Shown here one piece after another: positions 18,850 to 64,000 of a DNA stretch of 64,000 nt. Under the pieces are notes generated by a model. It worked only from the letters and a program-made list of their open reading frames with translations, was not told where the DNA came from and made no database searches. Origin of the DNA: Escherichia coli (GTDB lineage: Bacteria > Pseudomonadota > Gammaproteobacteria > Enterobacterales > Enterobacteriaceae); assembly GCF_046105845.1 (NCBI RefSeq), contig NZ_CP151004.1; one strand, 5' to 3'. How positions within the stretch are numbered: the first letter of the stretch is position 1; every line of letters starts with the position of its first letter. The translations under genes and the position numbers were made by a program.

Positions 18850-18899
18850 ACCTTAACCGGAGAATGCCCGCCGCAAGGACGGGCATTGCAGGGGCCAGA

Positions 18900-20261: not shown

Positions 20262-20320
20262 AACAAACTCCTTGTAAAATACAGATTGGTTTTTAACTCA
20301 ATGTTCAATATCGGGATTAA

Positions 20321-34381: not shown

Positions 34382-34399
34382 GTTGAAGCGCGCGCTTAA

Positions 34400-35296
<897 letters not shown>

Positions 35297-35326
35297 ATTT
35301 CCGTTGATCGGCACATGAACCACAAC

Positions 35327-35352
35327 GCCGGATGCGATGCTGCGCATCCGGC
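35327..35352. terminator. Bidirectional hairpin between convergent cnoX and fetB
   Basis: 10-bp stem gccggatgcg / cgcatccggc with 6-nt loop; REP-like. Confidence 0.5.
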
Positions 35353-35358
35353 ATTGCA

Positions 35359-38320: not shown

Positions 38321-38480
<160 letters not shown>

Positions 38481-38867: not shown

Positions 38868-39233
38868 TTAAATTTTCCTGCCTGGCGTAAACCTCTTAAA
38901 AATTGAGATTTATCAAAGAAACGCATTTTAGCACACATCAGGAACCGCTTCACGTTTAGTTCAGAAACAGAATTTATTTCGCTTATCAAAACAAGTCTTT
39001 ACTCTTTTTTACATTGAAAGAGCACAAAATGATTTTCTATTTTATTTATATAAGAAACATTTTTTGTTTCTTATTGGTGGTGTTTACGCTTACACCAGAC
39101 AAAAATGCGCTTTACATCACACAAATGGCGGCGTAGATTTCGATCAAATTGCAACGCAGATTAATTCTTATAACAACGTTTTACGTTGCTTATAGAAACA
39201 AATATGTGACTTACTTTGAAAGAGAAAAAATGC

Positions 39234-42210: not shown

Positions 42211-42633
42211 ATGATGAATAGTTCCATTAAATCGTTTTCCCTGCTGGCGGTTATATTACTGGCTGGCTGTAGTTCACCCACTTCCCGCATCGCAGATTGC
42301 CAGGCGCAGGGCGTCAGCCATGACACCTGTTATCTCGCAGAACAACAGCGTCAGACGGCTATTTTAAGTGCATCCGAGGCGCAGGCATTTAAAAATGCAG
42401 AAGCCGCACAACATGCCCAGGCGGCAAAGAAAGCCATTTATAAAGGATTTGGCATGACCTTTAGAATGAGCAGTAAGAACTTTGCTTATCTCAATGATTC
42501 ATTATGTGCAATTGATGAAGACAATAAAGATGCCACTGTTTATCAGTCAGGTCTTTATAACGTCATTGTTTATCACCACACGGGAAAAGTCGCCTTAATG
42601 AAGGAAGGTCAGTTTGTGGGTTATTTAAAATGA
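42211..42633 (+). CDS. Putative lipoprotein (140 aa)
   Basis: Signal peptide with lipobox LLAGC, Ser at +2; 85 bp downstream of and co-directional with the autotransporter gene. Confidence 0.6.
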   Translation: MMNSSIKSFSLLAVILLAGCSSPTSRIADCQAQGVSHDTCYLAEQQRQTAILSASEAQAFKNAEAAQHAQAAKKAIYKGFGMTFRMSSKNFAYLNDSLCAIDEDNKDATVYQSGLYNVIVYHHTGKVALMKEGQFVGYLK

Positions 42634-42836: not shown

Positions 42837-43244
42837 TCACCCCGCCCGATGATGACAGCAGCCGGAGAGATTTTCGATAATCGGGCAGTCGGCGCTGTCA
42901 TCGCCAGGGCAGGCATTCGCCAGCGCCAACAGCTGGTTGCGCATGGATTGCAGTTCTTCGATATGTCGCTCGATCTCCGCCACTTTCTCCAGGGTGCGAC
43001 GTTTGACGTCGGCACTGTGACGCTGCGGATCGTTAAACAGATTCACCAGCTCGCCGCTCTCTTCCAGGTTAAAGCCCACCTGGCGTGCCTGGCGCAGTAA
43101 GGTCAGTTCGTTGAGATGCTGCTGCGTGTAAGTACGATAACCGTTTTCGCTGCGCATCGGCGGCGTCACCAGCCCCTTCTCTTCATAGAAGCGGATTGCT
43201 TTGCTGGTCAGGCCGGTAATTTTTGCTACATCGCTAATGTTCAT
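42837..43244 (-). CDS. cueR: MerR-family copper-responsive regulator
   Basis: 135-aa [32 protein letters not shown]... with C-terminal metal-binding CPGDDSADC...CCHH; recognised CueR. Confidence 0.95.
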
Positions 43245-44416
43245 CGTTCGCGCAACGCCTCCTGTGCTTTATTAAAGGGTTTCAACAGATAATCCAGCAC
43301 GCTTTTTTTGCCGGTGCGGATATCGACCGTCGCCACCATGCCGGGAAATATCGGAAACTGCTGTTTACTTTTGTTTTCCAGATGGTTGCTGAAAGTGCGA
43401 ATGTACACCCGATAGTAATAAACATCGCGCCGCACTTCATCCTGCACGGTGTCTGGTGATATCACCGCCACTTCTCCCGGCAGGCCGCCGTAGATGGAGT
43501 AATCGTAGGCGGTTATTTTCACCAGCGATTTTTGCCCCGGATGGATAAACGCCACATCGCGCGGGGAGATTTTTGCCTCGATCAGCAGTTGCTCATCCAG
43601 CGGCACGATGGTCATCAGTTTACCACCGGGGGCAATGACCCCGCCAACCGTGGTGACGTCAATGTCCTGAACAATGCCTCGCACCGGCGCGGTAAAGTTG
43701 AGCCTGGTGAGGGAGTCTTCCCGTCCACGGATCACCGAACGCTGGGTTTCCACTTCCGCATTGGCTTTCGCTAACTCTTCGCGCGCCTGAACGTAATATT
43801 GCGTGCGCACGTCGCTAAGTTTGTTTTCCAGTTCATTGGCCTGGCGTTGCAGGCGCAGCACTTCAACGCTGCTCGCCGCCCCCTGTTTTACCAGCGGCTG
43901 GGTCATCGCCAGTTCGCGGTTGACCAGGCTAATCCCCTGCGTCAGCCCGGTGGTGGCTTTGTTCAGCCCATCGCGGCGAGTGTTGTACAACGCCGTTTCC
44001 GACTCGATAAGTTCGGGGAATTTATTCAGTTCGTCAGGGAAGACCAGCGGTTTATTGCTCACTTCCGCCCGCAGCCGCGCCGAGGTTGCCAGCGCCGCGT
44101 ACAGCCGCGACATTGCTTCCTGGACGTCGGATTCCGTTTTGGTGCGGTTAAGCTGCGCCAGCGGCTGGCCCTGTTCAACAATATCGCCAACCTTGACGTC
44201 GAGATGATACAGAATTCCGCCTTCCAGCGACTGCACCACCTGTTCGCGCCCGGAGGGTTCTACCGTGCCGCTGCCGGTGGTGACTTCATCAAGCTGGAAG
44301 TACCACGCCCAGCCGAGAAAACAGAGCAGCATCACAGCGGTAACGCGTACCGCCAGCGCCGAACGCGGCAAGCGGGGTTCAGTCAGGCCACGGTTGTATT
44401 GCAGTTGTCCGTTCAT
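43241..44416 (-). CDS. Type I secretion periplasmic adaptor (HlyD family membrane fusion protein)
   Basis: 391-aa ORF with N-terminal TM anchor, long coiled-coil region and C-terminal beta domain typical of HlyD/LapC; its stop overlaps the cueR start (ATGA). Confidence 0.88.
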
Positions 44417-46575
44417 GCGGCAGACCCCTTATTCTTCTCCTGCAACACCACCCGTCGCGCCGTGGGTTCGCTCTGTTCACGCAAAATGGCCTCTTTCGCG
44501 CCATCCATCACAATCCGCCCCTGATCCATCACGATGATCCTGTCCACCAGTTGCAGCATCGCCGTGCGGTGAGTAGCGATGACCAGCGTGCGATGCCCAA
44601 TCCACTGTTTCAGTTGTTCGATTAAATACGCTTCCGCCATTTCGTCCAGCGAGGCGCTGGGTTCATCGAGCAGCACGATATTGGGTTGAGAGATGAGTAG
44701 CCGCGCCAGCAGCAGCGTTTGCCGCTGACCACCAGAGAGGCCAAATCCCCCTTCCTGAATCATGTAGTTGAGGCCGTTTTTCTGCTTCTGCACAAAGGGC
44801 AGCGCGCCACTTAGCGTTAACGCGCGTTCGATATCTTCATCGCTGGCCTCCGGCATCCCCATGGTGAGGTTTTCCCGCAGCGAACCAAAAAACAGTCGCC
44901 CGGTCTGGCTCAGCAGCCCCATGTCGCGGCGCAGATCTGCCGGATCAAGTTGCCCGATGCTGATGTTATCCAGTAGCACCTGCCCCTGCTGGGCGATACG
45001 CATTCCGGCGAGCATTTGCAGTAGCGTTGATTTACCCGCGCCGTTGCGCCCGAGAATGGCGATTTTCTCTCCGGCCTGAATGTTGAGTTTGCCAATCGCC
45101 ACATCGGCAATCTTCTCTTCTTCGTCGTAATAAAATACCGCGTTGCTGAACTGATAATTGCCGTGCAGCACCGCTTTATGCACCAGTTTGCCGTGTTCCG
45201 GCTGATCCACCGGGCGCTTCATCAGTTCATCAAGGCCATTACGCGCTACTTTCGCCTGCTGCCAGCGCGAGAGCACGCCGGATATCTGCGACAGCGGCGC
45301 GATGGTGCGCGAAGCCAGGATCGTCGTCCCGACCAGCGCGCCGGTGGTCATGTCACCGTTCATTACCATAAAGCAGCCCACCAACAGCACCACCACGTAG
45401 ACGATGGACTGCACTTCCTGGGTCCAGGTGAGCAGTAGCCCGGTGAGAAAACGTTGCTTCATACTGATGGACGAGGCCACGTCGTTGGTGTGGTTCCACT
45501 GATTCTGAAAACGCTGTTCGGCGCGCAGCAGCTTAATATCTTCAATCGACTGCACGGCTTCCACCAGCGTAGCGTTACGCACCGCCGACTCGCGCATCCC
45601 TTCGTTCGCCAGCCGCGCCAGCGGGCGTTGTACCAGCAGGCCGGGGATCACCAATAACGGCAGCGCCAGCAAAACCACCAGCACCAGCCAGCCGCCAATC
45701 ATCCACAAAATAAAGACAAACAGCAGGAAGAACGGCAGATCCGCCACTGCACCAATAGTGGTGGAGGTGATCAGCTCCCGAACCGATTCCAGTTCGCGGA
45801 TCTGCGAGATAAACGATCCGGTGGATTTCGATCGCACGTTGTTTTTAAGCCGTAGCGCATGACCAAAAACGCGATCCGAAATACGCAGATCCGCCCGCTT
45901 GCCGATCACATCCGAAAGATGTGTGCGCACCATGCGCATACAGAACTCAAACAGGATCGCCATCATCACCCCGGCGAACAGCACCCATAGCGTCGGGTAC
46001 GATTGCGCCGGAACGACGCGGTCGTAAACCTGCATCGAGAAAATCATCGCCGCAAGCGCCAGCACGTTCGCCACCAGTGACGCCAGCATAATATCGCCAT
46101 AGCGCCGCCAGTCTTTTAGCGAGAGATTCCAGAACCAGTTCGCCTGATACGGGCGAATATAGTCGTCTACCCGCGCGTCAGGAATAGCGCTGAGCGGGCG
46201 CAACAGCGCCAGTTCGACGATGTTATCTTCAATATCCGTAACGTTAAGCGTGGTTTCCAGCCCTTCGTCACCGCTGAACTGAACGCTGATATTGTCGTGA
46301 TTATCGCGGCGGGTGATCACGCCAATCTGCTGATTATCAAATACCGCGATCAGCGGCAGACGCCACGGGTTAAGCGAGTCGGCGGAGAACTCCACCAACC
46401 GTAACCCCATTCCCAACTGCCGCGCCATATCGGTGAGCAACTCTTCCCGCTTGCTGTCGCGCTCCCAGTTGACGGTTGCGCGCACGTTCTCCTGAGAAAA
46501 ATCGAGGCGGTAATAACGCGCCACGGCGATCATCGCCTCCAGCCAGGCTTCCACGGACTGGGCATTTTTTTTCAT
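44413..46575 (-). CDS. Type I secretion ABC transporter (ATPase/permease) with N-terminal C39-like extension
   Basis: 720-aa ORF: ~150-aa N-terminal extension, 6-TM region, then Walker A GRNGAGKST, signature LSGGQRQ, Walker B LLDEPSASLD; its stop overlaps the adaptor start (ATGA). Confidence 0.9.
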   Translation of the reverse strand: MKKNAQSVEAWLEAMIAVARYYRLDFSQENVRATVNWERDSKREELLTDMARQLGMGLRLVEFSADSLNPWRLPLIAVFDNQQIGVITRRDNHDNISVQFSGDEGLETTLNVTDIEDNIVELALLRPLSAIPDARVDDYIRPYQANWFWNLSLKDWRRYGDIMLASLVANVLALAAMIFSMQVYDRVVPAQSYPTLWVLFAGVMMAILFEFCMRMVRTHLSDVIGKRADLRISDRVFGHALRLKNNVRSKSTGSFISQIRELESVRELITSTTIGAVADLPFFLLFVFILWMIGGWLVLVVLLALPLLVIPGLLVQRPLARLANEGMRESAVRNATLVEAVQSIEDIKLLRAEQRFQNQWNHTNDVASSISMKQRFLTGLLLTWTQEVQSIVYVVVLLVGCFMVMNGDMTTGALVGTTILASRTIAPLSQISGVLSRWQQAKVARNGLDELMKRPVDQPEHGKLVHKAVLHGNYQFSNAVFYYDEEEKIADVAIGKLNIQAGEKIAILGRNGAGKSTLLQMLAGMRIAQQGQVLLDNISIGQLDPADLRRDMGLLSQTGRLFFGSLRENLTMGMPEASDEDIERALTLSGALPFVQKQKNGLNYMIQEGGFGLSGGQRQTLLLARLLISQPNIVLLDEPSASLDEMAEAYLIEQLKQWIGHRTLVIATHRTAMLQLVDRIIVMDQGRIVMDGAKEAILREQSEPTARRVVLQEKNKGSAA

Positions 46576-46578
46576 TAT

Positions 46579-49500
46579 CTACACCACCATCAACTGATGA
46601 TTCGCCAGCAAAGTGGCGAGGTCGGTGTGCACGCCCGTCAGCGTGACCACGTTAGTTGTCGCAAAAGTGCCGCCCGTGCCGTCGCGGTCGATCTGTACGA
46701 TGGTGTCGCTGCCGCTCTGGGTGACTTTGACAAAATCACCGATGTTTCCGGCCTGCGCATCCAGCGTTGCCACGCCGTTGACGTAGCTGGCTTTACCGTT
46801 GCCGGTGTAGCCGCTGCCCTGTAACAACTCGCGGATATCAATGCGATCGGTGTCGGCGGTGCCTTCCCATGTCCCTACCGTAAAGCCATTCACCACGTCT
46901 GAGCCGTTGCCGCCGGTCGCGTCGCTGGCGTTGAGCAGTTTATAGAGCAAGGTGTCGTGGCCGCCGTTGCCGATGTTGAGCGTGTCGTTACCGCCGCGCC
47001 CTTCCAGTTGGTTATCGCCGCTGCTGCCGGTCAGAGTGTCGTTAAAATTCGAGCCGGATATCCCTTCGATATTGGTAAATGTCGAGGTGTTAAAGCCGGT
47101 GGCCTGCGCGGCGGTGCTGCTTAAGTTCGCGGTCACGCCCACCGTCGAGAGGCGGAAATCAACCACGTCCATCCCGCCATTCGCCAGCCACGTTCCGGTG
47201 CCGGAGCTGTACACCCAACCGCCGGAGCCGTCGTAAGTGTCGGTGCCTGCGGTGGCAAAGAAGGTGTCGTTATAGCCGGTGCCGACGAACTTGCCATTGT
47301 TGCTCGCGGTGCCTGCTTCGGCGCTGAGGTCGTAAGCGTGGGTGGCATCGGTGGCCTGTAAGCCGCCCCAGCTGGTGTTGACCGTCTGGTCGATATTGCT
47401 GGCGGTGGTGCCGGTGGATTTGATCAGCACCGCGTTGTAGGTTTCTCCGGCATTCAGCCCGTAGAAGTTGACCAGCGCCGAGGTGTCGTTAACCCCCATA
47501 CCCGACTGCGGGTTGATGATTTGCGTGGCGACCAGCACTCCCGCCGAGTTGTACAGTTTTACGGTATTGCCGTAATAGACGTTAATGCCGTTAGGATCGG
47601 TGATGCGCAGGTGCAGCGAAGTGCCGTAGCTCACCGTGTTGGTGTTGCGAATAAGATAGACGCTGCCCGACTGTTTGGTCACCAGCACATCCACCGCGCC
47701 GTCCCAGTCGTAGTCCATTGCCGCCACGCCGCTGGTGGTACCGCTCTGGCTACCGCCGAGGGCCGATTGTGTCCAGTTGCTGGCATTGCTGACGTTGGTA
47801 TAAAGATACGACTGCCCGGTCTGGGCGATACGGGCGATATCCATCAGGCCGTCATGGTTCCAGTCCACCGCCAGGCTAAACTGGCTGGCGTAGGTGGTTG
47901 CCGTTGCGCCCACCGCCACCGGGCTACCCAGTACACCGTTGGTGTTGAATAACAGCGAGCCGTAGTTAGCTCTTCCCTGGCTGGCGGGCAGGAAGAGATC
48001 CATATCGCCGTCGCCATCGAAATCGGCCCAGGTCATGGAAACGCTGCTGCTCATAGCGCCACTACCCGCCCCGCTCAGGAAGGTATTGGTGGTGTTCTGC
48101 CCCCAGACAAACGTCCCATTCCCCTGGTTGATGAGCGAAGACAGTGTGTAATAGTTATTCAGGTTATAGGTGTGCTGAACCAGGTCGATCCTGCCGTCAT
48201 TATTCAGATCGACGCCAGAACCTTCGTTGAGCGAAAGATACCCCGTCACCGCCCCGCCCACCGTGGCGCTACCGCCGCTGTTCGACGTGGTGGAGGTGCC
48301 TACCAGCGTGCCTGCGTTGTTCCACAAGAAGGTGTTAGAGTCCGGCCCGCCCGCGTCGCCAATCCAGAAGTCGAGATAGCCGTCGCCCTCTTTATCAAAT
48401 GCCACAATCGAGCCGTACCACGTCAGGGTGCCGACGGTGACCTGAATAGCGCTGGAAAAGGTGCCGTCGCCGTTATTGGTAAAGCCGTTGATATAGCCTG
48501 TACCGTAGTCATCACGGGTGATAAACAGATCGCCCGTGCCGTTACGGTCGTAATCGGCGATGGAGCTGGTGGCGTAGTTGTTGCCGCTCTGATACAGCGT
48601 CAGCGCGGTCTTCGACCAGGTGAGTGGGTCAGTCGATTGCATTACCTGCTGGTTTGCCAGCACCGTCCACATCCCGTGCGAGTCGAGGCCGTAGGTCAAT
48701 CCCCAGGCGGTGGTTTTGCTGACGGTGGTCCAGGTCGGTGTGTAATCAATCGCCGCATTAACCGTCACCGTGCCGTTGCTAATATTGGCGTTATTGCCGT
48801 TACCCGCCGAACTTTTTACCTGCGCAGTAACGGTATAGGCGGTCGCGGAAACTGTCAGCGCATCGGTATCCGGCAACTGTACATACCAGGTGTTGTGCGC
48901 CGGATCGACCACTACCGCGCCGCCCGGTTCAGAGGTGTAGGTTTTGCCGTTGATCACCACTTCAACATACTGCCCACTGGCGAGTGCCGCCGTGATTACC
49001 CCGCTGATAATCGGCGTGGTATCGCGCGTGGTCTGGCTGGTAATTTGCGCCAGCGTGGTCGGAATAGAGGTATCGACCGTCAGGACAAAATCACTGGAGG
49101 CGGTGATATTCCCCGCCAGATCCACCACTCGCGCACTGTAGGTGTAGGCACCGCTCACCAGCCCGCTGTCGCTGTAGGTCCAGTTCAGTGCGCCTACCAT
49201 CGTTACCGCGCCTAACAGCAGGCCGTTACGGTAGAGGTAAACCACTTCACCGCTGGCAAGCGGGCCGGAGAGCACGCCGTTCAGCAACGGCGTAGTGTCG
49301 TCGGTGGCCTGCGAACTGCTTAATGTCCCCTGCCGCTGCCCGACGTCATCAGTGTACGACACAATGGTCGGCGTCGCGGTGGGGTTAATCGTATCGACCA
49401 CCACCGTTTTCGACACCACCGGACCGGTGTTCCCCGCCAGATCCAGCACCCGCACCTGATAAACATAGCTGCCGTCGGTCAGCGTGCGGCTGTCAGTGTA

Positions 49501-55500: not shown

Positions 55501-58500
55501 GTTACCCGCCGCACTGGTGGCACTGGCGCTGACGGTATAGTTGGCCTGACCTAGAGCCGCCAGATCGCTCACCGGCACGGTTAAGGTCCAGTTGCCCGCC
55601 GCGTCGGTGGTGGCGCTGTAGTTATGACCGTTGAGCGTGACGGTGACCTGCGCGCCCGTCGCCAGCCCCGTACTGCTACCGCTAATGGTCAACGGCTGGC
55701 CTTTTTCATCGGCGTTCAGGACGTTATCGCCGCTGATGGCGTTAAAGGTAATTGACGGCAGGCCAGTATTGACCGTCACCTGATGCGTGGCGCTGCCGCT
55801 GTTTCCGGCGGCATCGGTGACGCTGGCGTTAATGGTCACCGTGCCGTTCGCCAGCGCCGAGACGACGCTTGCCGGAACGCCGACGCTCCAGTTACCGCTG
55901 GCATCCAGCACGGTGGTGAAGGTATTTGTGCCGATAGTCACCGTCACGGTGCTACCGGTTGCCGCACCCGTGGCGGAGCCGCTGATAATCTGCGCCTGGG
56001 CGTGTTCCGTCGCGTTGATCACATCATCGCCTGCCACCGTGTTGATGGTGACGACCGGAACGGAAGTATCCACCGTCAGGTTGTGATTAACCGAGGCCGG
56101 GTTTCCGGCTTTGTCGCTCACCGCCGCATTCACGGTGTAGTTGCTGGCGGTCAGGGCGCTTAAGTCGGCTGGCGGTACGCTGACGCTCCAGCTACCGTCC
56201 GTTTGAACCGTGCCAGTATAGTTTTCGCCATTGAGGGTGACGGTCACTGTCTGCCCCGCTTCCGCCGTGCTGCTGCCAGTGATAGTCAGCGCAGCACCCG
56301 CTTCGGCGGCGTTAAGAATGTCGTCGCCCGCAATGGTGTTAATGGTCACCGTTGGCGCGGTAGCATCGACGCTGTAAGCGTGGGTAGTGGTGGCGCTGTT
56401 GCCGTTAACATTGCTGACGTTGGCCTGCGCGCTGGCATCGCCATCACGCAGGGCCGCCATATCTGCCGCCGGAACCGAGGTGCTCCAGGAACCATTCGCC
56501 GCGACGCTTGCAGTGTAGGTTTTGCCGCCAAAGGTGACGGTGACCGTTTGCCCGGCCTCCACACCAGAAGTGCTGCCAGAGAGCGTTAACGCCGCGCCTT
56601 TTTCGGCAGCGTTAATCACGTCATCGGCAGTAATGGCGTTGATGCTGACCGCCACCGCAGTGAGATCGACAGTCACCGGATGCGTAACGCTGACCGGATT
56701 TCCGGCTGTGGTGCTACCGCTCGCCGTAATCGTGACCGTCCCCGCAGGCCAGGCGCTGACATCTGCCGCCGGAACGCCGACGCTCCATGAGCCATCCGCC
56801 AGTACCGCCGCAACATAGGTTTGCCCGTTAATGGTCAGCGTGACGTTACTGCCCGTCGCCAGACCGGAACTGCTGCCGGTAATCATCAGCGCCTGTCCGT
56901 GCTCGATAATATTGACCACATCATCGCCAGCGACAGTATCGACCCGCAGACCGGGCAGATTCGCGTCGATGGTGATTTCACGCGTGCCGTTACCGGTATT
57001 ACCTACGCTGTTCGTTACCGAAGCCGAAATGGTCAGCTCGCCGTTGCCCAGCGCCTGTAAAGCGGCTGCCGGAACATTAATACTCCAGCTTAAATTCGCC
57101 TGCACCGTGGCAGTGTAAGTCGCCCCGCCGAGCGTGACGGTTACCGTGTCGCCCGCTGCCGCGCCCGTCACTTGCCCGCTGATGCTCTGGCCCGCGCCCG
57201 CTTCGGCAGCGTTAATAATATCGTCGCTCGCGACAACGTTAATGGTGACGCCCGGCAGCGCGGTATTAACCTGCACGTTATGGCTGGCGGAACCGCTGTT
57301 GCCATCAGAGTCAGTAGCGGCGGCGGTCACCGTGTAAGTGGCTTCACCGAGGGCGCTCACCCGTGACGCCGGAACGGTCACGCTCCAGTTACCGGATGCA
57401 TCGGCAGTGGTGGTGTAATTTTGCCCGTTGAGCGTAACGGTTATCTGCGTGCCCGCAGGCTGGTCGCTGGTGCCGGAAATCGCCAGATCCGCGCCTTTCT
57501 CCGTGGCGTTGATGATGTCATCGACGGCAATGGTGTTAATGCTAAGTACCGGAGCGCCGAGCGCCACGCTGACACTGTGCGAGGCCGTGCCGCTGTTGCC
57601 TGCGGAGTCGGTGACCGTGGCGGTAATGGTCACATCCCCCTGCGCCAGTGCGGAAATCACGCTGGCAGGCACACCGATGCTCCAGTTGCCGTTGGCGTCC
57701 AGCACGGTGGTATAGGTAGTCGTGCCAATGGTCACGGAAACCGTGTTACCGGTCGTCGCGCCCGTTGCCGAGCCGCTGATAATCTGCGCCTGAGCATGTT
57801 CCGTGGCGTTGATGATGTCATCGCCCGCCACCGTGTTAATGGTGACAACCGGAGCGGCAAGGTCCACCGTCAGATTATGTGTTGCTGAAGCCGGATTTCC
57901 GGCTTTGTCGCTGACCGCCGCGCTCACCGTATAGGGACTGACAGTGAGGTTGGCTAAATCGCCAGTTGGTACGCTGACGCTCCAGTTCCCGTCTGCCTGC
58001 ACGTTGCCGCTGTAATTGACGCCGTTTAGCGTCACAGTCACCGTCTGCCCGGCTTCCGCCGTGGTGGTGCCGCTGATGGTCAGCGCCGATCCCGCTTCGG
58101 CGGCGTTAAGAATATCGTCGCTGGCGATGGTGTTGATGGTAACGGATGGCGCGGTGGCATCGACGCTGTAAGCATGCGTTGCCTGGGCGCTGTTACCTGC
58201 GACGTTGCTGACGCTGGCCTGGACGTTTGCTGCGCCGTCAGGCAAGGTTGCGAGATCGGCGACTGGGATCGTTAGCCCCCAGGTGCCGCCCGCGGCAACC
58301 GTGGTGGTGTAGCTTTTACCACCGAAGATAACGGTGATGGTCTGCCCCGCTTCCACGCCGGAGGTGGTGCCGGAAAGCTGCAAATCGCTGCCTTTTTCGG
58401 CGGCATTAATTACATCGTCAGTGGAAAGGGTGTTGATGGTGATCGCCACAGTAGCGAGATCGACCGTGACCGGATGAGTAATGCTGGTTGTGGTTCCGGC

Positions 58501-61500
58501 AGTATTCGTGCCAGAGACGGCAATATTGACCGTCCCCGCAGGCCAGTTTGTGACGTCTGTCGCCGGAACGCCGACGCTCCAGGTGCCATCGGCGAGTACC
58601 GTTGCGCCATAGGCGACGCCGTTGATAACTACCGTCAACGCCGCCCCCGCCGCCAGTCCGGTACTGCTACCGGTGACCACCAGTGCCTGAACGTGCTCAA
58701 TGCTGTTAATCACATCATCGCCTGCCACGGTATCGACGCGCAGACCAGGTAGGTTGGCGTCTATTACGATGTCGTGCGTTGCGGTGCCAGTATTATTTGC
58801 GGAATTGGTCACCGAGGCGCTGATGGTCAGTTCACCGTTGCCCAGCGCCTGCAAAACGTTCGCAGGTACGCTGACGCTCCAGCTTAAATCTGACTGCACG
58901 GTGGCGGTGTATTGATTGCCGCCAATGATGACAATAACCGTATTCCCCGCAATCGCCGTCCCCGTGACCTGACCGCTGATGGTCTGCGCCACAGCGATTT
59001 CAGCCGCGTTGATAATGTCATCGCCCGCCACGGTATTAATGATTACCCCTGGCAGGAGCGATTCGACATTCACCGTATGGGTGGTGCTGCCGCTGTTGCC
59101 CGCGCTGTCGGTGGCGCTGGCGCTAATCTGATACACCGCCTCGCCCAGTGCGCCGACCGCCGAAGCAGGCACGGTAACGCTCCAGTTACCGGAACCGTCG
59201 GTGGTGGCACTGTACGCCAGGCCGTTCAACATCACGGTGACCGTGGTGCCGATCGCCAGACCGCTGGAGCCGCCGCTGATGGTCAGATCCTGAGTTTTCT
59301 CGGTATTGTTAATAATGTCATCGCCAGAGACAGTATTGATGGTCAGCGTTGGGCCGCTGAGATCAACGGTCACATCGTGAGTCGTGCTGTCGCTGTTGCC
59401 CGCGCGATCGCTCAGGCTGGCGGTGATGGTCTGGCTACCGGTTGCCAGCGCCGTGACATCCGCCGCCGGAATACCGACGCTCCAGTTACCGGAGGCATCC
59501 AGCGTGGTGGTGTAGTTTTTGCCGTTGAGCGAGACGGTCACCACATCGCCTGCCGCCGCGCCCGTGCTGGTGCCGCTCACCACCAGCGCCTGCCCGTGTT
59601 CGATAGCGTTGATGATGTCATCGCCCGCGACGGTGTTAATGGTGAGATCCGGCGCGGTAACGTCCACCGCCAGCGCGTGGTCGGCGCTTGCCGGGTTACC
59701 CGCTTTGTCGCTTACCGTGGCGGTCACGGTATAGCTGCTGGCGATTAATCCGCTTAAATCCGTTGCCGGAACGTTCACGCTCCAGGTGCCATTCGCCTGA
59801 ACGGTGGTCTGGTAAGTGTTGTTATTGAGCGTGACGGTCAGCGTCTGCCCGGCCTGCGCCGTGGTGGTGCCGCTGATGGTGATCCCCGCGCCCGCTTCGC
59901 TCACGTTGAGAATATCGTCACTGGCGATGGTGTTGATGGTCACAAGCGGCGCAGTGGCATCGACGCTGTACGCGCGATCGGCCTGGGCGTTATTGCCGTT
60001 AATGTTGCTGACGTTCGCCTGCACGTTGCCCGCGCCATCCGGCAGCGCAGCGAGATCGGCAGGCGGTACGTTCACCGTCCAGCTACCGTTGGCTTCCACA
60101 GTAGTGGTGTAATTTTTGCCACCAAAGGTGACGGTCACCGTCTGCCCGGCTTCCACGCCGCTGGTGCTGCCGCTTACGACCAGCGTTTCGCCTTTCTCCA
60201 CGGCGTTGATCACATCATCGCCGGACAGGGTGTTAATGGTGATGGCGACCGCCGTCAGATCGACAGTGACCGGATGGGTAATGGTGGAGGTTGTTCCGGC
60301 GCTGTTGGTGCCGCTTACCGTAATATCCACCGTACCCGCAGGCCAGTTGCTGACGTCTGCCGCCGGAATACCGAGGCTCCACGTGCCGTCGGCTAACACC
60401 GTCGCGGCGTAAGTGACGTTGTTGATCACAACCGTTAACGCGGTTCCTGCCGTCAGTCCGCTGCTGCTCCCGGTGATCACCAGCGCCTGATTGTGCTCAA
60501 TGCTGTTAATAACATCATCGCCCGCCACGGTATCGACCCGCAGTCCAGGCAGATTGGCGTCGATCGTGATATCGCGCGAGCCGCTGCCCGTGTTGCCAAC
60601 GCCATTGGTGACCGAGGTGTTAACTGTCAGGTTGCCGTTACCCAGCGCCTGAATATCCGCCGCCGGAACGCTGACACTCCAGCTTAAATTGGCCTGCACT
60701 GTGGCGGTGTAGGTGTTGCCGCCCAGCGTAACGGTAACCGTATCCCCCTGCGCTGCGCCCGTCACCTGCCCGCTGATAGTCTGGGCATTTCCCGACTCGG
60801 CATCGTTAATAATATCGTCGGTCGCCACCGCGTTAATAGTGACGGCAGGCAGCGCGCTGTTGACCAGCACGTTATGGCTGGCGGAATTGCTGTTGCCTGC
60901 GCTATCGGTGACGTTCGCGGTTACCGTGTAGTTGGCTTCCCCCAGCGCGCTAACCGCCGAGGCTGGCACCGTGGCGCTCCAGTTGCCGTTGCTATCGGTC
61001 GTCGCGGTGTAATTTTGCCCGTTCAACGTCACCGTAATGGTGGTGCCCGCAGGCTGATTACTGGTGCCGGTAATTTGCAGATCCGCGCCTTTTTCCGTGG
61101 CGTTAATCACGTCATCGCTGGCGATAGTGTTGATGCCAATGGTTGGCGCGGTCAGATTCACGGTGACCGTGCGGCTGGCATCATCGCTGTTGCCTGCCGC
61201 GTCGGTAATGGTAGCTGTGATGGTTTGCGGGCCGCTGCCCAGCGCGGTGACATCTGACAGCGGAACGCCGACGCTCCAGTTGCCGGAAGCATCCAGCGTG
61301 GTGGTGTAGGTTTTACTGTTTAGCGTGACGGTGATGACATCACCCGCTTCGCCGCCAGTGCTGGAACCGGAGATCACCAGCGCCTGTCCGTGTTCGGCGG
61401 CGTTAATAATGTCATCGCCGGAGATGGTGTTGATGGTCAGCACCGGCACGGTGAGATCCACCGCCAGCCCGTGAGTGGTGGTCGCAGGGTTACCCGCTTT

Positions 61501-64000
61501 ATCGCTTACCGAGGCGCTGACCGTGTACTGACTGGCGGTCAGATTGCTGAGATCCGCCGTCGGCACGCTGACGCTCCAGCTCCCGTCCGCCAGGACGGTG
61601 CCGGTGTAAGTCACGCCATTAAGCGTGACAGTTACCGTCTGCCCCGCTTCGGCGGTGCTACTGCCGCTGATGGTTAGCGGATTGCCCGCCTCGGCGGCGT
61701 TCAGAATATCGTCGGTGGCGATGGTGTTAATGGCAAGCGTCGGTGCCGTGGCGTCGACGCTGTAGGCGTGCGTTGCCGAAGCCGTGTTGCCGTTAATAGT
61801 GCTGACGCTGGCCTGTACCGTGGCGTCGCCGTCGCGTAACGCGCTGAGATTGGCGGCAGGTACGGTGGTTGTCCAGCTACCATCGCCCGCTACGGTAGCG
61901 GTGTAGGTTTTCCCGCCAAAGGTAACGGTGACCGTTTGCCCCACTTCCACGCCGGAGGTGCTGCCTGAAAGGGTTAAATCTGCACTTTTTTCAGCGGCAT
62001 TAATCACATCGTCGCCGGAAACGGTGTTAATGGAGATCGCCACAGCTGCCAGATCGACGGTGACTGGATGGGTGATGGTGACCGGGTTTCCTGCGCTAGT
62101 AGCACCTGAAACCGTGATATTCACCGTACCCGCAGGCCAGTTGCCCACATCTGCCGCCGGAACACCAACGCTCCATGTGCCATCGGCTAATACTGTCGCA
62201 GCGTAAGTGACCGTGTTAATCACCACCGTCAGCGCCGCGCCCGCCGCCAGCCCGCTGCTGCTACCAGTTATCACCAGTGCCTGACTGTGCTCGATGCTGT
62301 TGACCACATCATCGCCCGCCACGGTATCGACGCGCAGGCCAGGCAAATTAGCGTCGATAGTAATATCTCGCGAACCGCTGCCGGTATTACCAACGCCGTT
62401 GGTCACCGAGGCATTAACTGTCAGGTCGCCATTGCCGATGGCCTGAATATCCGCCGCCGGAACGCCCACGCTCCAGCTTAAATTGCCCTGCACGGTAGTG
62501 GTGTAGGTTTTCCCGCCAAGCGTTACGGTAACCGTATCGCCCGCCGCCGCGCCCGTCACCTGCCCGCTGATGGTCTGCGCCACGCCCGATTCGGCGGCGT
62601 TAATAATGTCGTCGCTCGCCACCGGATTAAGGGTGACGCCAGGCAGTGCGGTATTCACCTGCACGTTATGGCTGGCGGAATTACTGTTACCCGCGCTGTC
62701 GGTGACATTCGCCGTCACCGTATAACTGGCTTCGCCCAGCGCACTGACGGCGGAGGCTGGCACCGTGGTGCTCCAGTTGCCTGCGGCGTCCGTCGTGGCA
62801 GTGTAATTTTGCCCGTTCAGCGTCAGCGTAATTGTGGTGCCAGCTGGCTGATTACTGGTGCCGGAAATTTGCAGATCCGCGCCTTTTTCGATGGCGTTAA
62901 TCACGTCATCGGTGGCGATGGTGTTAATGCCAATGGTCGGCGCGGTCAGATTCACTGTAACCGTGCGGCTGGCATCATCGCTATTGCCTGCCGCGTCGGT
63001 AATGCTGGCGGTGACAGTTTGCGGGCCGCTGCCCAGCGCCGTGACATCCGCCGCCGGAACGCCGACGCTCCAGTTGCCGGAGGCATCCAGCGTCGTGGTG
63101 TAGGTTTTACTGTTTAGCGTGACGGTGACGACATCCCCCGCTTCTCCGCCAGTGCTGGAACCGGAAATCACCAGCGCCTGCCCGTGTTCGGCGGCGTTAA
63201 TAATATCGTCGCCCGCAATGGTGTTGATGGTGAGTACCGGAACGGTGAGATCCACCGCCAGATTATGCGTGGTGCTCGCCGGGTTGCCTGCTTTGTCATT
63301 GACCGTGGCGGTCAGGGTGTGGCTGCCATCGGTCAATGCCTCAAGATCTGCCGCCGGAATATTAATACTCCAGCTACCGTCGGCCTGTACCGTTGCCTGA
63401 TACGTCTGCACGGTCGGGCTATTGAGCGTTATCGTAACAATCTGCCCTGCCTCGGCAGTGGTGCTGCCGCTCACCGTCACACCCGCATCGGCTTCGCTGG
63501 CGTTGACGATATTGTCGCTGGCAACGGTATTGATAATGATGGTCGGGACACTGCTGTCGACGCTGTAGTTATGCACCGCCGAGGCGCTATTGCCGTTAAT
63601 ATTGCTGACGCTGGCCTGCGCGGAGGCGCTGCCCTCTGGTAATGCTGCCAGATCGGCGGCGGGAACGGTGGCAGCCCAGCTACCATCGCTCGCCACGCTG
63701 GCAGTGTAATTTTTCCCGCCAAAGGTGACGGTGACGGTTTGACCGGATTCTACGTTAGTGGTGGTGCCGGAAAGGGTTAAATCAGCGCCTTTTTCTGTGG
63801 CGTTAATCACATCATCCGTGGCGATGGTGTTGATGGTGATCGCCGCCGGAGTGAGATCGACCATAACCGGATGCGTAATGCTCACCGGATTTTCGGCGCT
63901 ACTTTCCCCGGACACGGTAACCGTTACTGTTCCCGCAGGCCAGGCGCTAACCTGCGCCGCCGTGACGCCCACGCTCCAGCTACCATCGGCCTGCACCGCA
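46579..64000 (-). CDS. Giant RTX-type non-fimbrial adhesin, T1SS substrate; partial (N-terminus beyond window end)
   Basis: Open minus-strand frame from the window edge to TAG at 46579..46581 (at least 5805 aa in window); the leading M in the ORF track is an edge artefact. Dozens of ~100-aa Ig-like domains, a second repeat class, FG-GAP/VCBS-like motifs, RTX nonapeptides and a C-terminal secretion region; stop is 3 bp from the ABC transporter start. Confidence 0.9.
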   Translation of the reverse strand, partial: AVQADGSWSVGVTAAQVSAWPAGTVTVTVSGESSAENPVSITHPVMVDLTPAAITINTIATDDVINATEKGADLTLSGTTTNVESGQTVTVTFGGKNYTASVASDGSWAATVPAADLAALPEGSASAQASVSNINGNSASAVHNYSVDSSVPTIIINTVASDNIVNASEADAGVTVSGSTTAEAGQIVTITLNSPTVQTYQATVQADGSWSINIPAADLEALTDGSHTLTATVNDKAGNPASTTHNLAVDLTVPVLTINTIAGDDIINAAEHGQALVISGSSTGGEAGDVVTVTLNSKTYTTTLDASGNWSVGVPAADVTALGSGPQTVTASITDAAGNSDDASRTVTVNLTAPTIGINTIATDDVINAIEKGADLQISGTSNQPAGTTITLTLNGQNYTATTDAAGNWSTTVPASAVSALGEASYTVTANVTDSAGNSNSASHNVQVNTALPGVTLNPVASDDIINAAESGVAQTISGQVTGAAAGDTVTVTLGGKTYTTTVQGNLSWSVGVPAADIQAIGNGDLTVNASVTNGVGNTGSGSRDITIDANLPGLRVDTVAGDDVVNSIEHSQALVITGSSSGLAAGAALTVVINTVTYAATVLADGTWSVGVPAADVGNWPAGTVNITVSGATSAGNPVTITHPVTVDLAAVAISINTVSGDDVINAAEKSADLTLSGSTSGVEVGQTVTVTFGGKTYTATVAGDGSWTTTVPAANLSALRDGDATVQASVSTINGNTASATHAYSVDATAPTLAINTIATDDILNAAEAGNPLTISGSSTAEAGQTVTVTLNGVTYTGTVLADGSWSVSVPTADLSNLTASQYTVSASVSDKAGNPATTTHGLAVDLTVPVLTINTISGDDIINAAEHGQALVISGSSTGGEAGDVITVTLNSKTYTTTLDASGNWSVGVPLSDVTALGSGPQTITATITDAAGNSDDASRTVTVNLTAPTIGINTIASDDVINATEKGADLQITGTSNQPAGTTITVTLNGQNYTATTDSNGNWSATVPASAVSALGEANYTVTANVTDSAGNSNSASHNVLVNSALPAVTINAVATDDIINDAESGNAQTISGQVTGAAQGDTVTVTLGGNTYTATVQANLSWSVSVPAADIQALGNGNLTVNTSVTNGVGNTGSGSRDITIDANLPGLRVDTVAGDDVINSIEHNQALVITGSSSGLTAGTALTVVINNVTYAATVLADGTWSLGIPAADVSNWPAGTVDITVSGTNSAGTTSTITHPVTVDLTAVAITINTLSGDDVINAVEKGETLVVSGSTSGVEAGQTVTVTFGGKNYTTTVEANGSWTVNVPPADLAALPDGAGNVQANVSNINGNNAQADRAYSVDATAPLVTINTIASDDILNVSEAGAGITISGTTTAQAGQTLTVTLNNNTYQTTVQANGTWSVNVPATDLSGLIASSYTVTATVSDKAGNPASADHALAVDVTAPDLTINTVAGDDIINAIEHGQALVVSGTSTGAAAGDVVTVSLNGKNYTTTLDASGNWSVGIPAADVTALATGSQTITASLSDRAGNSDSTTHDVTVDLSGPTLTINTVSGDDIINNTEKTQDLTISGGSSGLAIGTTVTVMLNGLAYSATTDGSGNWSVTVPASAVGALGEAVYQISASATDSAGNSGSTTHTVNVESLLPGVIINTVAGDDIINAAEIAVAQTISGQVTGTAIAGNTVIVIIGGNQYTATVQSDLSWSVSVPANVLQALGNGELTISASVTNSANNTGTATHDIVIDANLPGLRVDTVAGDDVINSIEHVQALVVTGSSTGLAAGAALTVVINGVAYGATVLADGTWSVGVPATDVTNWPAGTVNIAVSGTNTAGTTTSITHPVTVDLATVAITINTLSTDDVINAAEKGSDLQLSGTTSGVEAGQTITVIFGGKSYTTTVAAGGTWGLTIPVADLATLPDGAANVQASVSNVAGNSAQATHAYSVDATAPSVTINTIASDDILNAAEAGSALTISGTTTAEAGQTVTVTLNGVNYSGNVQADGNWSVSVPTGDLANLTVSPYTVSAAVSDKAGNPASATHNLTVDLAAPVVTINTVAGDDIINATEHAQAQIISGSATGATTGNTVSVTIGTTTYTTVLDANGNWSIGVPASVISALAQGDVTITATVTDSAGNSGTASHSVSVALGAPVLSINTIAVDDIINATEKGADLAISGTSDQPAGTQITVTLNGQNYTTTADASGNWSVTVPASRVSALGEATYTVTAAATDSDGNSGSASHNVQVNTALPGVTINVVASDDIINAAEAGAGQSISGQVTGAAAGDTVTVTLGGATYTATVQANLSWSINVPAAALQALGNGELTISASVTNSVGNTGNGTREITIDANLPGLRVDTVAGDDVVNIIEHGQALMITGSSSGLATGSNVTLTINGQTYVAAVLADGSWSVGVPAADVSAWPAGTVTITASGSTTAGNPVSVTHPVTVDLTAVAVSINAITADDVINAAEKGAALTLSGSTSGVEAGQTVTVTFGGKTYTASVAANGSWSTSVPAADMAALRDGDASAQANVSNVNGNSATTTHAYSVDATAPTVTINTIAGDDILNAAEAGAALTITGSSTAEAGQTVTVTLNGENYTGTVQTDGSWSVSVPPADLSALTASNYTVNAAVSDKAGNPASVNHNLTVDTSVPVVTINTVAGDDVINATEHAQAQIISGSATGAATGSTVTVTIGTNTFTTVLDASGNWSVGVPASVVSALANGTVTINASVTDAAGNSGSATHQVTVNTGLPSITFNAISGDNVLNADEKGQPLTISGSSTGLATGAQVTVTLNGHNYSATTDAAGNWTLTVPVSDLAALGQANYTVSASATSAAGNTASSQANLLIDSGLPGVTINTVAGDDIINAAEAGADQTISGVVTRAAAGDTVTVTLGGNTYTTTVQGNLSWSISVPAADLQALGNGDLTINASVTNANGNTGSGTRDITIDANLPGLRVDTVAGDDIVNSIEHGQALVITGGSSGLNAGVPLTITINGTAYSATVQADGSWSVGIPATNVSAWPAGALTVDVAGQSSAGNPVSVSHPFTVDLTAVAISINTVASDDVINAAEKGTGLTLSGSTSGIESGQTVTVIFGGKTYTASVAANGSWSVNVPAADLATLPDGAANVQASVSSASGNSASATHAYSVDASAPTLTINTIASDDILNATEAGSPLTISGTSTAETGQTVTVTLNGATYSGNVQADGSWSVSVPPSALGALSASNYTVSATVNDKAGNPGSASHNLAVDTTAPVLTINTVAGDDIINDAEHAQALVISGTSTGGEAGDVVSVVLNGKTYTTTLDASGNWSVGVPAADVTALGSGAQTITASVSDRAGNSDDASRTVTVSLSAPVISINTIAGDDVINATEKGSDLTLSGTSDQPAGTAITVTLNGQNYSATTDASGNWSVTVPASAVSALGEATYSVTASVTNAQGNSSTASHNVQVNTALPGVTINPVATDDIINAAEAGSAQTISGQVTGAAAGSTVTVELGGKTYTATVQADLSWNVSVPAADWQALGNGELTVNALVTNAVGNTGSGTRDITIDASLPGLRVDTVAGDDVVNIIEHAQAQVITGSSSGFAAGTALTVVINNQTYAATVLANGSWSVGVPAADVSNWPAGTLNITVSGANSAGTQTSITHPLTVDLTTVAISMNSITSDDVINAAEKGAALTLSGSTSGVEAGQTVTITFGGKTYTTTVAANGSWSTTVPAADMAALRDGDASAQVRVTNVNGNSATATHEYSVDSAAPTVTINTIASDNIINASEAAAGVTVSGTSTAETGQTLTVTLNGTNYQTTVQADGSWSLTLPASDLTALANNGYTLTATVSDLAGNPGSASKGVTVDTTAPVISFNTVAGDDVINNVEHTQAQIISGTATGAVAGDRLVVTIAGQQYVTSTDASGNWSVGVPASVISGLADGTVTISATITDSAGNSSTQTHNVQVNTAAVSLSVSTISGDNIINAAEAGSALTLIGTGTNFAAGTVVTVLLNGKGYSATIQSNGSWSVNVPAADVAALADGTSYTVSASAQDSAGNSATASRSVAVDLTAPIISINTVSTDDRLNAAEQQQPLTLNGSTSAEVGQTVTVTFGGKTYTATVAANGTWALNVPAADLAALGQGAQTITASVNDRAGNPGQTTHALTVDTVAPTVTIATVAGDDIINNAEQLAGQTISGTTTAEVGQTVTVTFNGQSWTATVGSGGSWSVFIPAQQFAGLSDGSYTISASVADQAGNPGSASRGVTLNGDVPTVTINTFAGDDVVNAAEHGSSLVISGTTTAPVGQTLTLTLNGKTYTTTVQTGGSWSYTLGSADVTALTDGNAYVINASVSNAIGNTGSSNHTITVDLSVPAMGINIDSLQADTGLSASDFITSVSPVVVNGSLTAALASNETAQISIDGGVTWTTLTVTGTTWRYNDSRTLTDGNYLYQVRVIDAAGNVGATDSQNVVIDTIAPDPAVKTIAISAITTDTGLITNDFVTSDTTLAVSGTLGAALSAGEFAQISIDGGTTWQNLSVSGLTWTYLDGRTLSDGNYNYQVRVIDTAGNIGATASQIVTVDTTAPLASKTIAIAGISDDTGLSSSDFVTRDTTLTVRGTLGAALAADERAQISLDGGVTWTTLTVIGTSWSYADGRTLTDGTWNYTVRVVDLAGNVGQTATQNVVVDTTSPEAAKSITITGISDDTGASSSDFITSDTSLTVRGVLGAALGANEFAQISTDNGATWVNVTVAADGLNWSYVDGRTLTNGTTTWQVRVVDLAGNVGATGSQSALIDTVNPAQVLTIASISTDTGSSATDFITSDTTLTLTGSLGAGLASGEVAQISLDGGATWITLTTNGTQWTYTDSRTLTDGSYVYQVRVLDLAGNTGPVVSKTVVVDTINPTATPTIVSYTDDVGQRQGTLSSSQATDDTTPLLNGVLSGPLASGEVVYLYRNGLLLGAVTMVGALNWTYSDSGLVSGAYTYSARVVDLAGNITASSDFVLTVDTSIPTTLAQITSQTTRDTTPIISGVITAALASGQYVEVVINGKTYTSEPGGAVVVDPAHNTWYVQLPDTDALTVSATAYTVTAQVKSSAGNGNNANISNGTVTVNAAIDYTPTWTTVSKTTAWGLTYGLDSHGMWTVLANQQVMQSTDPLTWSKTALTLYQSGNNYATSSIADYDRNGTGDLFITRDDYGTGYINGFTNNGDGTFSSAIQVTVGTLTWYGSIVAFDKEGDGYLDFWIGDAGGPDSNTFLWNNAGTLVGTSTTSNSGGSATVGGAVTGYLSLNEGSGVDLNNDGRIDLVQHTYNLNNYYTLSSLINQGNGTFVWGQNTTNTFLSGAGSGAMSSSVSMTWADFDGDGDMDLFLPASQGRANYGSLLFNTNGVLGSPVAVGATATTYASQFSLAVDWNHDGLMDIARIAQTGQSYLYTNVSNASNWTQSALGGSQSGTTSGVAAMDYDWDGAVDVLVTKQSGSVYLIRNTNTVSYGTSLHLRITDPNGINVYYGNTVKLYNSAGVLVATQIINPQSGMGVNDTSALVNFYGLNAGETYNAVLIKSTGTTASNIDQTVNTSWGGLQATDATHAYDLSAEAGTASNNGKFVGTGYNDTFFATAGTDTYDGSGGWVYSSGTGTWLANGGMDVVDFRLSTVGVTANLSSTAAQATGFNTSTFTNIEGISGSNFNDTLTGSSGDNQLEGRGGNDTLNIGNGGHDTLLYKLLNASDATGGNGSDVVNGFTVGTWEGTADTDRIDIRELLQGSGYTGNGKASYVNGVATLDAQAGNIGDFVKVTQSGSDTIVQIDRDGTGGTFATTNVVTLTGVHTDLATLLANHQLMVV
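46582..47040 (-). other. RTX nonapeptide motifs and C-terminal type I secretion signal region of the adhesin
   Basis: LEGRGGNDTLNIGNGGHDTL (GGxGxD repeats) about 140 aa from the C-terminus, confirmed by reverse-complementing 46961..47020; the final ~60 aa lack Cys. Confidence 0.65.
47400..48750 (-). other. FG-GAP/VCBS-like calcium-binding repeat region of the adhesin (coordinates approximate)
   Basis: Motifs DYDRNGTGDLFI, DKEGDGYLDFWI, DLNNDGRIDLV, DFDGDGDMDLFL, DWNHDGLMDIA, DYDWDGAVDVLV. Confidence 0.5.
48750..50960 (-). repeat. Second class of ~105-aa repeats (about 7 copies) in the adhesin (coordinates approximate)
   Basis: Repeating units with motifs ...I(S/T)xDTGxSxxDF(I/V)TxDTxLT(V/L)xGxLGAxL...ISxDGGxTW...DGRTLTDG...VRV(I/V)DxAGN.... 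Confidence 0.6.
50960..64000 (-). repeat. Array of ~100-aa bacterial Ig-like domains arranged in ~6-domain (~1.8 kb) super-repeats (coordinates approximate)
   Basis: Motifs such as (I/V)NT(I/V)AxDD(I/V)(I/L)NAxE recur about every 99-100 aa; the block IDANLPGLRVDTVAGDD recurs at least 6 times at ~600-aa spacing; antisense ORFs recur with ~300-bp and 1794-bp periodicity (e.g. 61064 vs 62858). Confidence 0.8.

Follow-up and report, generated by a model that had tools for sequence, protein, structure and literature searches.

Our analysis of a 64,000-nucleotide stretch of Escherichia coli DNA (contig NZ_CP151004.1; this whole stretch is called the window below) leads us to conclude that positions 43241 to 64000 very probably represent the distal four-fifths of O-island 28 (OI-28), the SiiEA type I secretion island. 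This unit lies between ybaT and cueR and comprises four genes, which encode a TolC-family outer-membrane protein (OMP), the giant adhesin SiiEA, an ATP-binding cassette (ABC) permease/ATPase and a periplasmic adaptor. The locus is already known: it is annotated, it carries a name (SiiEA, NCBIfam NF047714) and it has been characterised experimentally. An earlier reading of the window, made from the sequence only, had described three tightly packed minus-strand genes as a type I secretion system (T1SS) operon that exports a giant repeat adhesin, and profile hidden Markov models (HMMs), synteny and a published functional study agree in supporting that description. The genes and segments on which the argument rests are the following.

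46579-64000, minus strand: 3' 84% of the giant adhesin gene siiEA, equivalent to OI-28 rtxA28/rtxB28; open reading frame (ORF) with its TAG stop at 46579-46581
44413-46575, minus strand: ABC permease/ATPase gene of a type I system, equivalent to hlyB28/lapB, 720 aa
43241-44416, minus strand: HlyD-family periplasmic adaptor gene, equivalent to hlyD28, 391 aa
42837-43244, minus strand: cueR, a backbone gene (NF007590, 308 bits)
49069-63999, minus strand: adhesin extender of about 46 tandem Ca2+-stabilised bacterial Ig-like repeats of about 100 aa each (NF033510, Big_13, PDB 4P99)
47632-48555, minus strand: FG-GAP/VCBS-like repeat region, adhesin residues ~6268-6575 (FG-GAP_3, three matches with E from 2.9e-9 to 2.9e-7 and weaker ones)
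46951-47289, minus strand: short degenerate block of RTX nonapeptides, adhesin residues ~6690-6802 (HemolysinCabind, E = 2.1e-4)
46591-46899, minus strand: uncleaved C-terminal type I secretion target domain, adhesin residues ~6820-6922 (TIGR03661)
46126-46575, minus strand: C39-like domain that lacks the catalytic cysteine, ABC protein residues 1 to ~150 (weak Peptidase_C39 match, HlyB alignment)
43245-43339, minus strand: last ~94 nt of the adaptor gene, kept in K-12-type genomes just upstream of cueR (93% identity to the K-12 spacer)

The identification is carried by the distribution and order of the genes. A megablast of positions 43000-47000 recovered 958 of 5,426 complete E. coli genomes at 80% coverage or more, a probe from the adhesin segment likewise found 958 genomes with all matches chromosomal, and a probe made of the ybaT-OMP spacer, the OMP gene and the 5' end of the adhesin gene found exactly 958, each with one full-length copy. 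The island is present in 17.7% of complete E. coli genomes, and about 82% are without it. At the matches RefSeq names a ‘type I secretion system permease/ATPase’, an ‘HlyD family type I secretion periplasmic adaptor subunit’, ‘siiEA: BapA-related adhesin SiiEA’ and cueR. The genes of AST215, the closest genome, follow one another as ybaT, TolC-family OMP gene, siiEA (20,755 nt, frameshifted), ABC gene, adaptor gene and cueR, and the same order is repeated in PCN033, O157 Sakai and isolate 3702594 (NZ_CM182088.1). The window shares with O157 OI-28 (S-loop 42-44) the site between ybaT and cueR, the gene order and adhesin DNA that is 92-94% identical; it differs in that the O157 adhesin gene is interrupted, whereas the window allele is a single frame that matches the intact 6,925-aa form of non-O157 strains. 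No integrase, tRNA or insertion sequence was found at the island borders. AST215 has transposase genes of the IS3 family and of IS621 in its gsk-ybaL interval (comparison stretch 1190-3763); they lie some 12 kb upstream of the island and are unrelated to its borders.

The genes have been on record since the O157 genomes, as OI-28 or S-loop 42, and in a 2007 listing S-loop 42-44 appears as an ‘RTX-like protein’, a ‘CyaE-like protein’ and ‘putative RTX toxin secretion’ proteins (PMC2323221). A functional dissection followed in December 2025, in which Niu et al. 2025 named the OI-28 genes tolC28, rtxA28, rtxB28, hlyB28 and hlyD28, handling the two O157 adhesin ORFs as two RTX proteins (PMC12758282). 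In O157:H7, deletion of each single OI-28 gene cuts adherence to Caco-2 cells, pedestal formation and colonisation of mice, and the deletions of the three transporter genes are rescued by complementation; RstA binds the upstream region, and Ca2+ raises both OI-28 expression and adherence (PMC12758282).

Within the window the three genes and their junctions were found as the sequence-only reading had described them. Read directly, the adhesin ends in TAG, a 3-nt spacer (ATA) follows and the ABC gene opens with ATG; the ABC and adaptor genes overlap by ATGA (4 bp), and the adaptor stop in turn overlaps the ATG of cueR (CGATGA, 43241-43244) with zero intergenic spacer. The adhesin ORF is listed as 46579-63996, that is, from its first in-frame GTG; the frame runs on, giving 5,806 sense codons with a single terminal stop and remaining open at the window edge. 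At 60.3%, the G+C content of the island, like the 57.1% of its two transporter genes, exceeds the 52% measured over the first 38 kb of the window, and an Rfam scan of positions 36000-64000 returned no match within the island.

Both transporter proteins are assigned firmly to the type I pathway. HMM searches, which the sequence-only reading had named as a check, matched T1SS component families above their curated cut-offs. The adaptor scores 327.7 bits with TIGR01843 (HlyD-family type I adaptor; cut-off 208.65), contains the Pfam domains HlyD_3 and HlyD_D23, matches HlyD (8DCK, E = 6.7e-30) as well as LipC among PDB structures and is 100% identical to ECs_0544 of O157 Sakai. Similarly, the ABC protein, which is 99.3% identical to Sakai ECs_0543, reaches 837.5 bits with TIGR03375 (LssB-type T1SS permease/ATPase; cut-off 693.1), while falling under the cut-off of the HlyB subfamily (388 versus 725 bits) and under that of PrtD too. 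Its Pfam domains are ABC_membrane and ABC_tran, preceded by a weak Peptidase_C39 match at residues 12-82 (E = 0.029). Because this match is joined by the absence of any cysteine in residues 1-160 and by an alignment with HlyB (PDB 7SGR/8DCK, E = 1e-80) that runs from residue 10 to 701 and so takes in the C39-like domain, the N-terminal extension is a C39-like domain without catalytic function, of the kind carried by group 2 (RTX-type) T1SS ABC transporters.

The adhesin fragment aligns without gaps, at 97.3% amino-acid identity, to residues 1120-6925 of the intact protein WP_001605107.1 (6,925 aa), and the window DNA is collinear with nt 3357-20778 of the intact siiEA in NZ_CM182088.1. Most of it is extender: NF033510 (Ca_tandemer) matches 18 + 28 stretches of the fragment (1,439 + 2,470 bits), and the N-terminal 1,119 aa of the relatives hold 10 further repeats of this family. 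A 600-aa segment of the repeats matches the RII tetra-tandemer of MpIBP in the PDB (4P99, E = 2.3e-63), with further RTX-adhesin and Lap entries, 5IRB and 6XI3 among them, also recovered. The repeats were counted with protein HMMs because their DNA copies are too diverged (~73-76% in self-BLAST); Tandem Repeats Finder detects one short array in the adhesin DNA, with a 318-nt period, 3.1 copies and 72% matches. The final 1,200 residues hold four Big_13 domains and three to five FG-GAP_3 repeats, the latter marking a candidate ligand-binding module. Beyond them, the RTX block adds one more sub-threshold HemolysinCabind match and resembles the RTX block of CyaA in the PDB (E = 7.8e-4), and TIGR03661 (T1SS_VCA0849) spans the last ~105 residues at 32.1 bits against a cut-off of 17.6. 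The composite full-length adhesin has a mass of ~689 kDa and a pI of 4.05 and is nearly free of Cys, Lys and Arg.

The description of the locus as ‘LapA/SiiE-type’ proves loosely right. The repeats match extenders of the MpIBP/Lap type and, at the sequence level, not the solved SiiE Ig domains, and neither LapG/LapD nor SiiAB genes occur within ~20 kb in four E. coli relatives. MpIBP of Marinomonas primoryensis and the LapA/MhLap proteins share with SiiEA the plan of a T1SS-exported megaprotein: a tandem Ig-like extender made rigid by Ca2+; at the C-terminus, ligand-binding modules, RTX repeats and the secretion signal; at the N-terminus, which for SiiEA was seen in relatives, a globular domain and a Gly-rich linker; and, for export, an ABC protein of the LssB/LapB type. 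SiiEA differs from MpIBP and LapA in having neither LapG/LapD genes nearby nor a conserved dialanine site, and its N-terminal domain is BapA_N (PF22783). That prefix-like domain is shared with BapA of the Salmonella BapA/BapBCD system, as are Ig-like repeats and a dedicated T1SS. BapA is a protein of ~3,800 aa encoded at a different locus, where the T1SS genes follow downstream of bapA. Its own TolC-like gene adjoins the adhesin gene, as at the SiiEA locus (PMC12153261).

The SiiE/SiiCDF system of Salmonella pathogenicity island 4 (SPI-4), from whose SiiE the historical gene name ‘siiE’ derives, likewise exports a giant T1SS adhesin for gut colonisation, with ~53 Ca2+-binding Ig domains. The SiiEA locus differs from it in gene order and in having no siiAB (MotAB-like) genes in its operon, and no SiiA or SiiB gene was found in the four-gene operon or the annotated flanks in AST215, PCN033, Sakai and CM182088. 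Of the comparison with O157 O-islands and Salmonella sii that the sequence-only reading had proposed, the first half thus returned the same locus, OI-28, whereas the second returned no match of the repeats to solved SiiE domains: at the sequence level, no SiiE entry appears among the PDB matches to the 600-aa repeat segment at E <= 0.1.

Several observations weigh against the reading of a complete SiiEA island. Three parts lie outside the window, namely the OMP gene, the promoter that carries the RstA box and the initial 1,119 codons of the adhesin, and their presence and integrity in this strain follow from synteny only. Gly/Asp-rich nonapeptides are present, so that the label ‘RTX-type’ holds weakly; they are just ~6-7 by eye, and degenerate. 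The siiEA gene is disrupted in 4 of 11 inspected genomes (AST215, PCN033, O157 FRIK2069 and Sakai), frameshifts are recorded in the OMP gene of strain 103 (comparison stretch 838-2192) and in the adaptor gene of PCN033 (comparison stretch 39584-40758), and the functional data come from O157, in which a premature stop splits the adhesin, and not from an intact allele. AST215 and PCN033 carry frameshifts in siiEA and FRIK2069 is recorded as ‘frameshifted; internal stop’, although in so repetitive a gene some of these records may reflect faulty assembly. The Sakai gene has an in-frame TAG at codon 1462, where the window reads GCC, and is thereby divided into ECs_0541 and ECs_0542, the latter restarting in the same frame 210 nt after the stop (Sakai comparison stretch 11355-31823). 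This indicates that the two O157 adhesin ORFs are two pieces of one gene, of which the N-terminal piece would lack the secretion signal and the C-terminal piece the N-terminal domain.

These lesions, together with the loss of the whole island from ~82% of E. coli, raise the prospect of a decaying remnant in which a defect beyond the window, whether at the 5' end of siiEA, within the OMP gene or in the promoter, renders the system non-functional. We regard this as unlikely. The 17.4 kb of adhesin gene and the two transporter genes run through the window uninterrupted, so that the frameshift or stop that the sequence-only reading had named as grounds for doubt is absent from the visible part, and the frame is open wherever these relatives are broken, including the break sites of AST215 (~57,061-57,300) and Sakai (~62,971). 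Moreover, siiEA is intact in 7 of the 11 inspected genomes, with lengths of 20,775 nt and 18,975 nt in one each and in five of exactly 20,778 nt (6,925 aa), the length implied by the window alignment. That the window carries an uninterrupted allele where O157 is broken is a modestly new point.

The preferred reading of a complete SiiEA island also has to be weighed against a strict LapA-type system, in which the adhesin would be retained by its N-terminus and released by a LapG-like protease under the control of LapD and cyclic di-GMP (c-di-GMP), with the genes for both located elsewhere in the genome. The relevant N-terminus lies outside the window and was studied in relatives, where it matches NF047714 (adhesin_SiiEA, a 229-residue N-terminal signature that includes the BapA_N prefix-like domain) at 512 and 506 bits against a cut-off of 425, BapA_N PF22783 at E = 1.4e-19 and NF033677 at 69.9 bits. 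A simpler homologue search with the N-terminal 175 aa gave only E. coli and Shigella fragments, whereas an exhaustive search of representatives with the same residues reached other genera and found 145 relatives, the close named ones in Enterobacter cloacae, Pantoea, Dryocola, Trabulsiella and Pseudomonas. In their alignment a beta-rich module is conserved (…NDLLIYMxDGSxIR…YF…SELVF…), after which come a hydrophobic stretch rich in Gly and Ala and then a run of Gly, and this layout of beta-domain and Gly/Ala linker is conserved in 35 homologues. An AlphaFold2 model from the 35-sequence alignment gives the beta-domain (residues 1-122) a predicted local distance difference test (pLDDT) score above 90 and leaves the Gly/Ala stretch at 125-151 disordered; no significant structural match to a solved homologue was recovered for the SiiEA N-terminal domain. 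In the source from which we took the LapA-type criteria, the retention modules of LapA and DvhA are described with this arrangement of globular domain and Gly-rich linker (PMC10690286).

This layout and the LssB/LapB subfamily of the ABC protein speak for a Lap-type mechanism, as does a TAAG at SiiEA residues 97-100 in the relatives, near the position of 107-TAAG-110 in LapA and 105-PAAG-108 in DvhA (PMC10690286). As a LapG cleavage site, however, the TAAG was rejected: it is not conserved among 44 aligned N-terminal homologues, and even the closest of them read DAAV, GEASG, GDASG or GEVAG there. With 10 occurrences of the motif class (T/A/P)AA(G/V) in the adhesin, one chance copy near the N-terminus is unremarkable, and the TAAG is probably coincidental. 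Nor is there a LapG (BTLCP) or LapD among the annotated genes within ~20 kb in AST215, PCN033, Sakai and CM182088, or within 10 kb of the homologous cassettes in Enterobacter cloacae and Dryocola. Neither protein is known to be encoded by E. coli.

Genes of c-di-GMP metabolism do flank the homologous cassettes in the two other genera, GerE-EAL and EAL genes in Enterobacter cloacae (comparison stretch 32733-36041) and GGDEF and PAS-GGDEF-EAL genes in Dryocola (comparison stretch 1-608 and 30116-32324). They are compatible with a Lap-type circuit, and they may be there by chance or hint at c-di-GMP control in those hosts. Because the TAAG is not conserved and LapG and LapD are missing from the flanks, regulated Lap-type release is unlikely, and the strict LapA-type system as a whole is very improbable. 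Retention of SiiEA by an N-terminal plug in the OMP is, by analogy, something we reasonably infer.

What carries the adhesin across the outer membrane bears on the identification in a different way. The sequence-only reading had noted no outer-membrane component in the window, and a tblastn search of all 64 kb with the locus-specific TolC-family protein confirms this for TolC-like sequence, giving only a 20-residue chance match (E = 3). On this ground, export might proceed through the housekeeping chromosomal TolC, as for HlyA, and not through a dedicated channel, and there is precedent in the E. coli HlyBD system, which borrows TolC. The likeness to that system extends to the transporter, in which HlyB is matched over its full length by the ABC protein and HlyD by the adaptor; the differences are an adhesin as substrate, the absence of hlyC, a dedicated OMP as placed by synteny and an ABC protein under the HlyB-subfamily cut-off.

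We consider recourse to the housekeeping TolC highly improbable. A TolC-family gene stands directly upstream of siiEA in all 958 island-bearing E. coli genomes, and the protein it encodes in relatives scores 416 bits with TIGR01844, so that the ‘missing’ OMP is most probably an artefact of where the window ends. The edge falls 3,356 nt short of the adhesin start, and by synteny the channel gene is expected ~3.5 kb past it, in agreement with the other option that the sequence-only reading had offered, a component of its own upstream of the window. In addition, cassettes with an outer-membrane channel, adhesin, ABC and adaptor gene occur in other genera, and deletion of the island channel gene in O157 lowered adherence, which complementation restored (PMC12758282).

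That the giant protein is an RTX cytotoxin and not an adhesin, as an old annotation of ‘RTX family exoprotein / RTX-like protein’ under ‘toxins’ (PMC2323221) and the weak RTX repeats might suggest, has next to no probability, given that more than 85% of the protein consists of Ig-like extender repeats homologous to adhesin stalks, that the HMM and Pfam scans of the adhesin gave only Ig-like, FG-GAP, RTX and T1SS-signal domains with no match to a pore-forming or enzymatic toxin, that the four-gene operon holds no acyltransferase gene of the hlyC type and that the O157 mutants have an adherence defect (PMC12758282).

The comparison of the SiiEA island with K-12 revises one claim of the sequence-only reading, namely that the island replaces the backbone flanking cueR. 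In K-12 there are only 124 bp between ybaT and cueR (K-12 comparison stretch 8870-8993), and this spacer consists of 28 nt of the ybaT-proximal island flank joined to ~94 nt of the adaptor 3' end, 93% identical with a 1-nt deletion. The segment encodes the family-conserved adaptor C-terminus …YLLKPxNKAxEALRER, which is also found in the Enterobacter and Dryocola adaptors, and over the K-12 junction RefSeq annotates a ‘hypothetical protein’. Since the K-12 spacer keeps the 3' end of the adaptor gene, the K-12 state must derive from an island-bearing state by deletion. The view of the ybaT-cueR spacer as a deletion scar, a modestly new point, is well supported. The scar junction is present at 80% coverage or more in 4,459 of the 5,426 genomes, which with the 958 island carriers accounts for 5,417.

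The junction of adaptor and cueR was also followed through a pattern scan of one genome per species, in which four genomes matched. The E. coli representative has the adaptor gene, Escherichia sp. E1V33 has it near-complete (residues 17-391 in the available stretch), E. whittamii retains at least its last 44 codons and Escherichia sp. MOD1-EC7003 carries the scar. In Enterobacter cloacae and Dryocola, homologous cassettes of channel, adhesin, ABC and adaptor genes (57-71% identity) sit in unrelated contexts without cueR, their adaptor genes ending at the same residue with TAA or TAG and no cueR after them. A constant link between the cassette and cueR was therefore rejected, and its occurrence in unrelated contexts indicates that it has been mobile over long time scales.

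Taken together, these observations could be accommodated by a joint reading that we put forward tentatively, as a possibility that is less likely to hold in full than to fail in some part. In it, the island would be the older state, a single deletion of ~25.7 kb would have produced the K-12 state now seen in ~4,460 of the 5,426 genomes and at least one cryptic Escherichia lineage, and cueR would be coupled to the operon. The K-12 region upstream of cueR, which necessarily holds any cueR promoter, would then be recycled T1SS coding sequence. The ATGA overlap of cueR with the operon is itself a modestly new point. We speculate that through it cueR is co-transcribed or translationally coupled with the RstA- and Ca2+-activated export operon. 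A scan for sigma-70 consensus sites gave no promoter-like site on the minus strand, either upstream of cueR or within the operon; its site count was at shuffle expectation, which makes it uninformative on an internal cueR promoter.

On the other side of cueR, between it and ybbJ, the window carries a second insertion relative to K-12. It contains a gene for a YadA-like trimeric autotransporter at 39216-42125 on the plus strand, an ORF of 969 aa with YadA_anchor at residues 910-969 and 4.9 near-identical (98%) 369-bp coiled-coil repeats at 39531-41352; the corresponding ORF measures 338-431 aa in Sakai, AST215, PCN033 and CM182088. Small hypothetical genes flank it at 42211-42633 and 38505-38867, and just past ybbJ, at the edge of this insertion, Rfam naRNA4 (RF02564, a nucleoid-associated RNA derived from repetitive extragenic palindromic (REP) elements) matches 38370-38447 on the plus strand at 71.9 bits.

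By homology, we propose that the SiiEA system works through an LssB/LapB-type ABC exporter with a non-catalytic C39-like domain for substrate docking, the HlyD-family adaptor and a dedicated TolC-family channel completing an envelope-spanning conduit. In keeping with general T1SS biology, the ~689-kDa acidic adhesin would be exported unfolded and C-terminus first by means of its uncleaved C-terminal signal, after which extracellular Ca2+ would fold the short RTX block and stiffen the ~56 Ig-like repeats into a long stalk that presents the FG-GAP module near its tip. By analogy with MpIBP and LapA, the N-terminal BapA_N beta-domain and Gly/Ala-rich linker seen in the relatives would be the likely plug that lodges the protein in the OMP. 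In this genome, as shown in O157:H7, the system may promote early epithelial adherence and gut colonisation under activation by RstA and Ca2+ (PMC12758282).

The island-free state keeps a remnant of the adaptor gene and so arose by deletion, which calls for caution over the published picture in which virulent lineages acquired OI-28 horizontally as a pathogenicity island. If cueR is indeed coupled to the operon, the dose of the copper regulator CueR would be tied to adhesin expression. Since O157, the sole background studied experimentally, has a premature stop that splits the gene, a strain with an intact allele such as the one described here would be the better model for the secretion and retention of the full 689-kDa adhesin.

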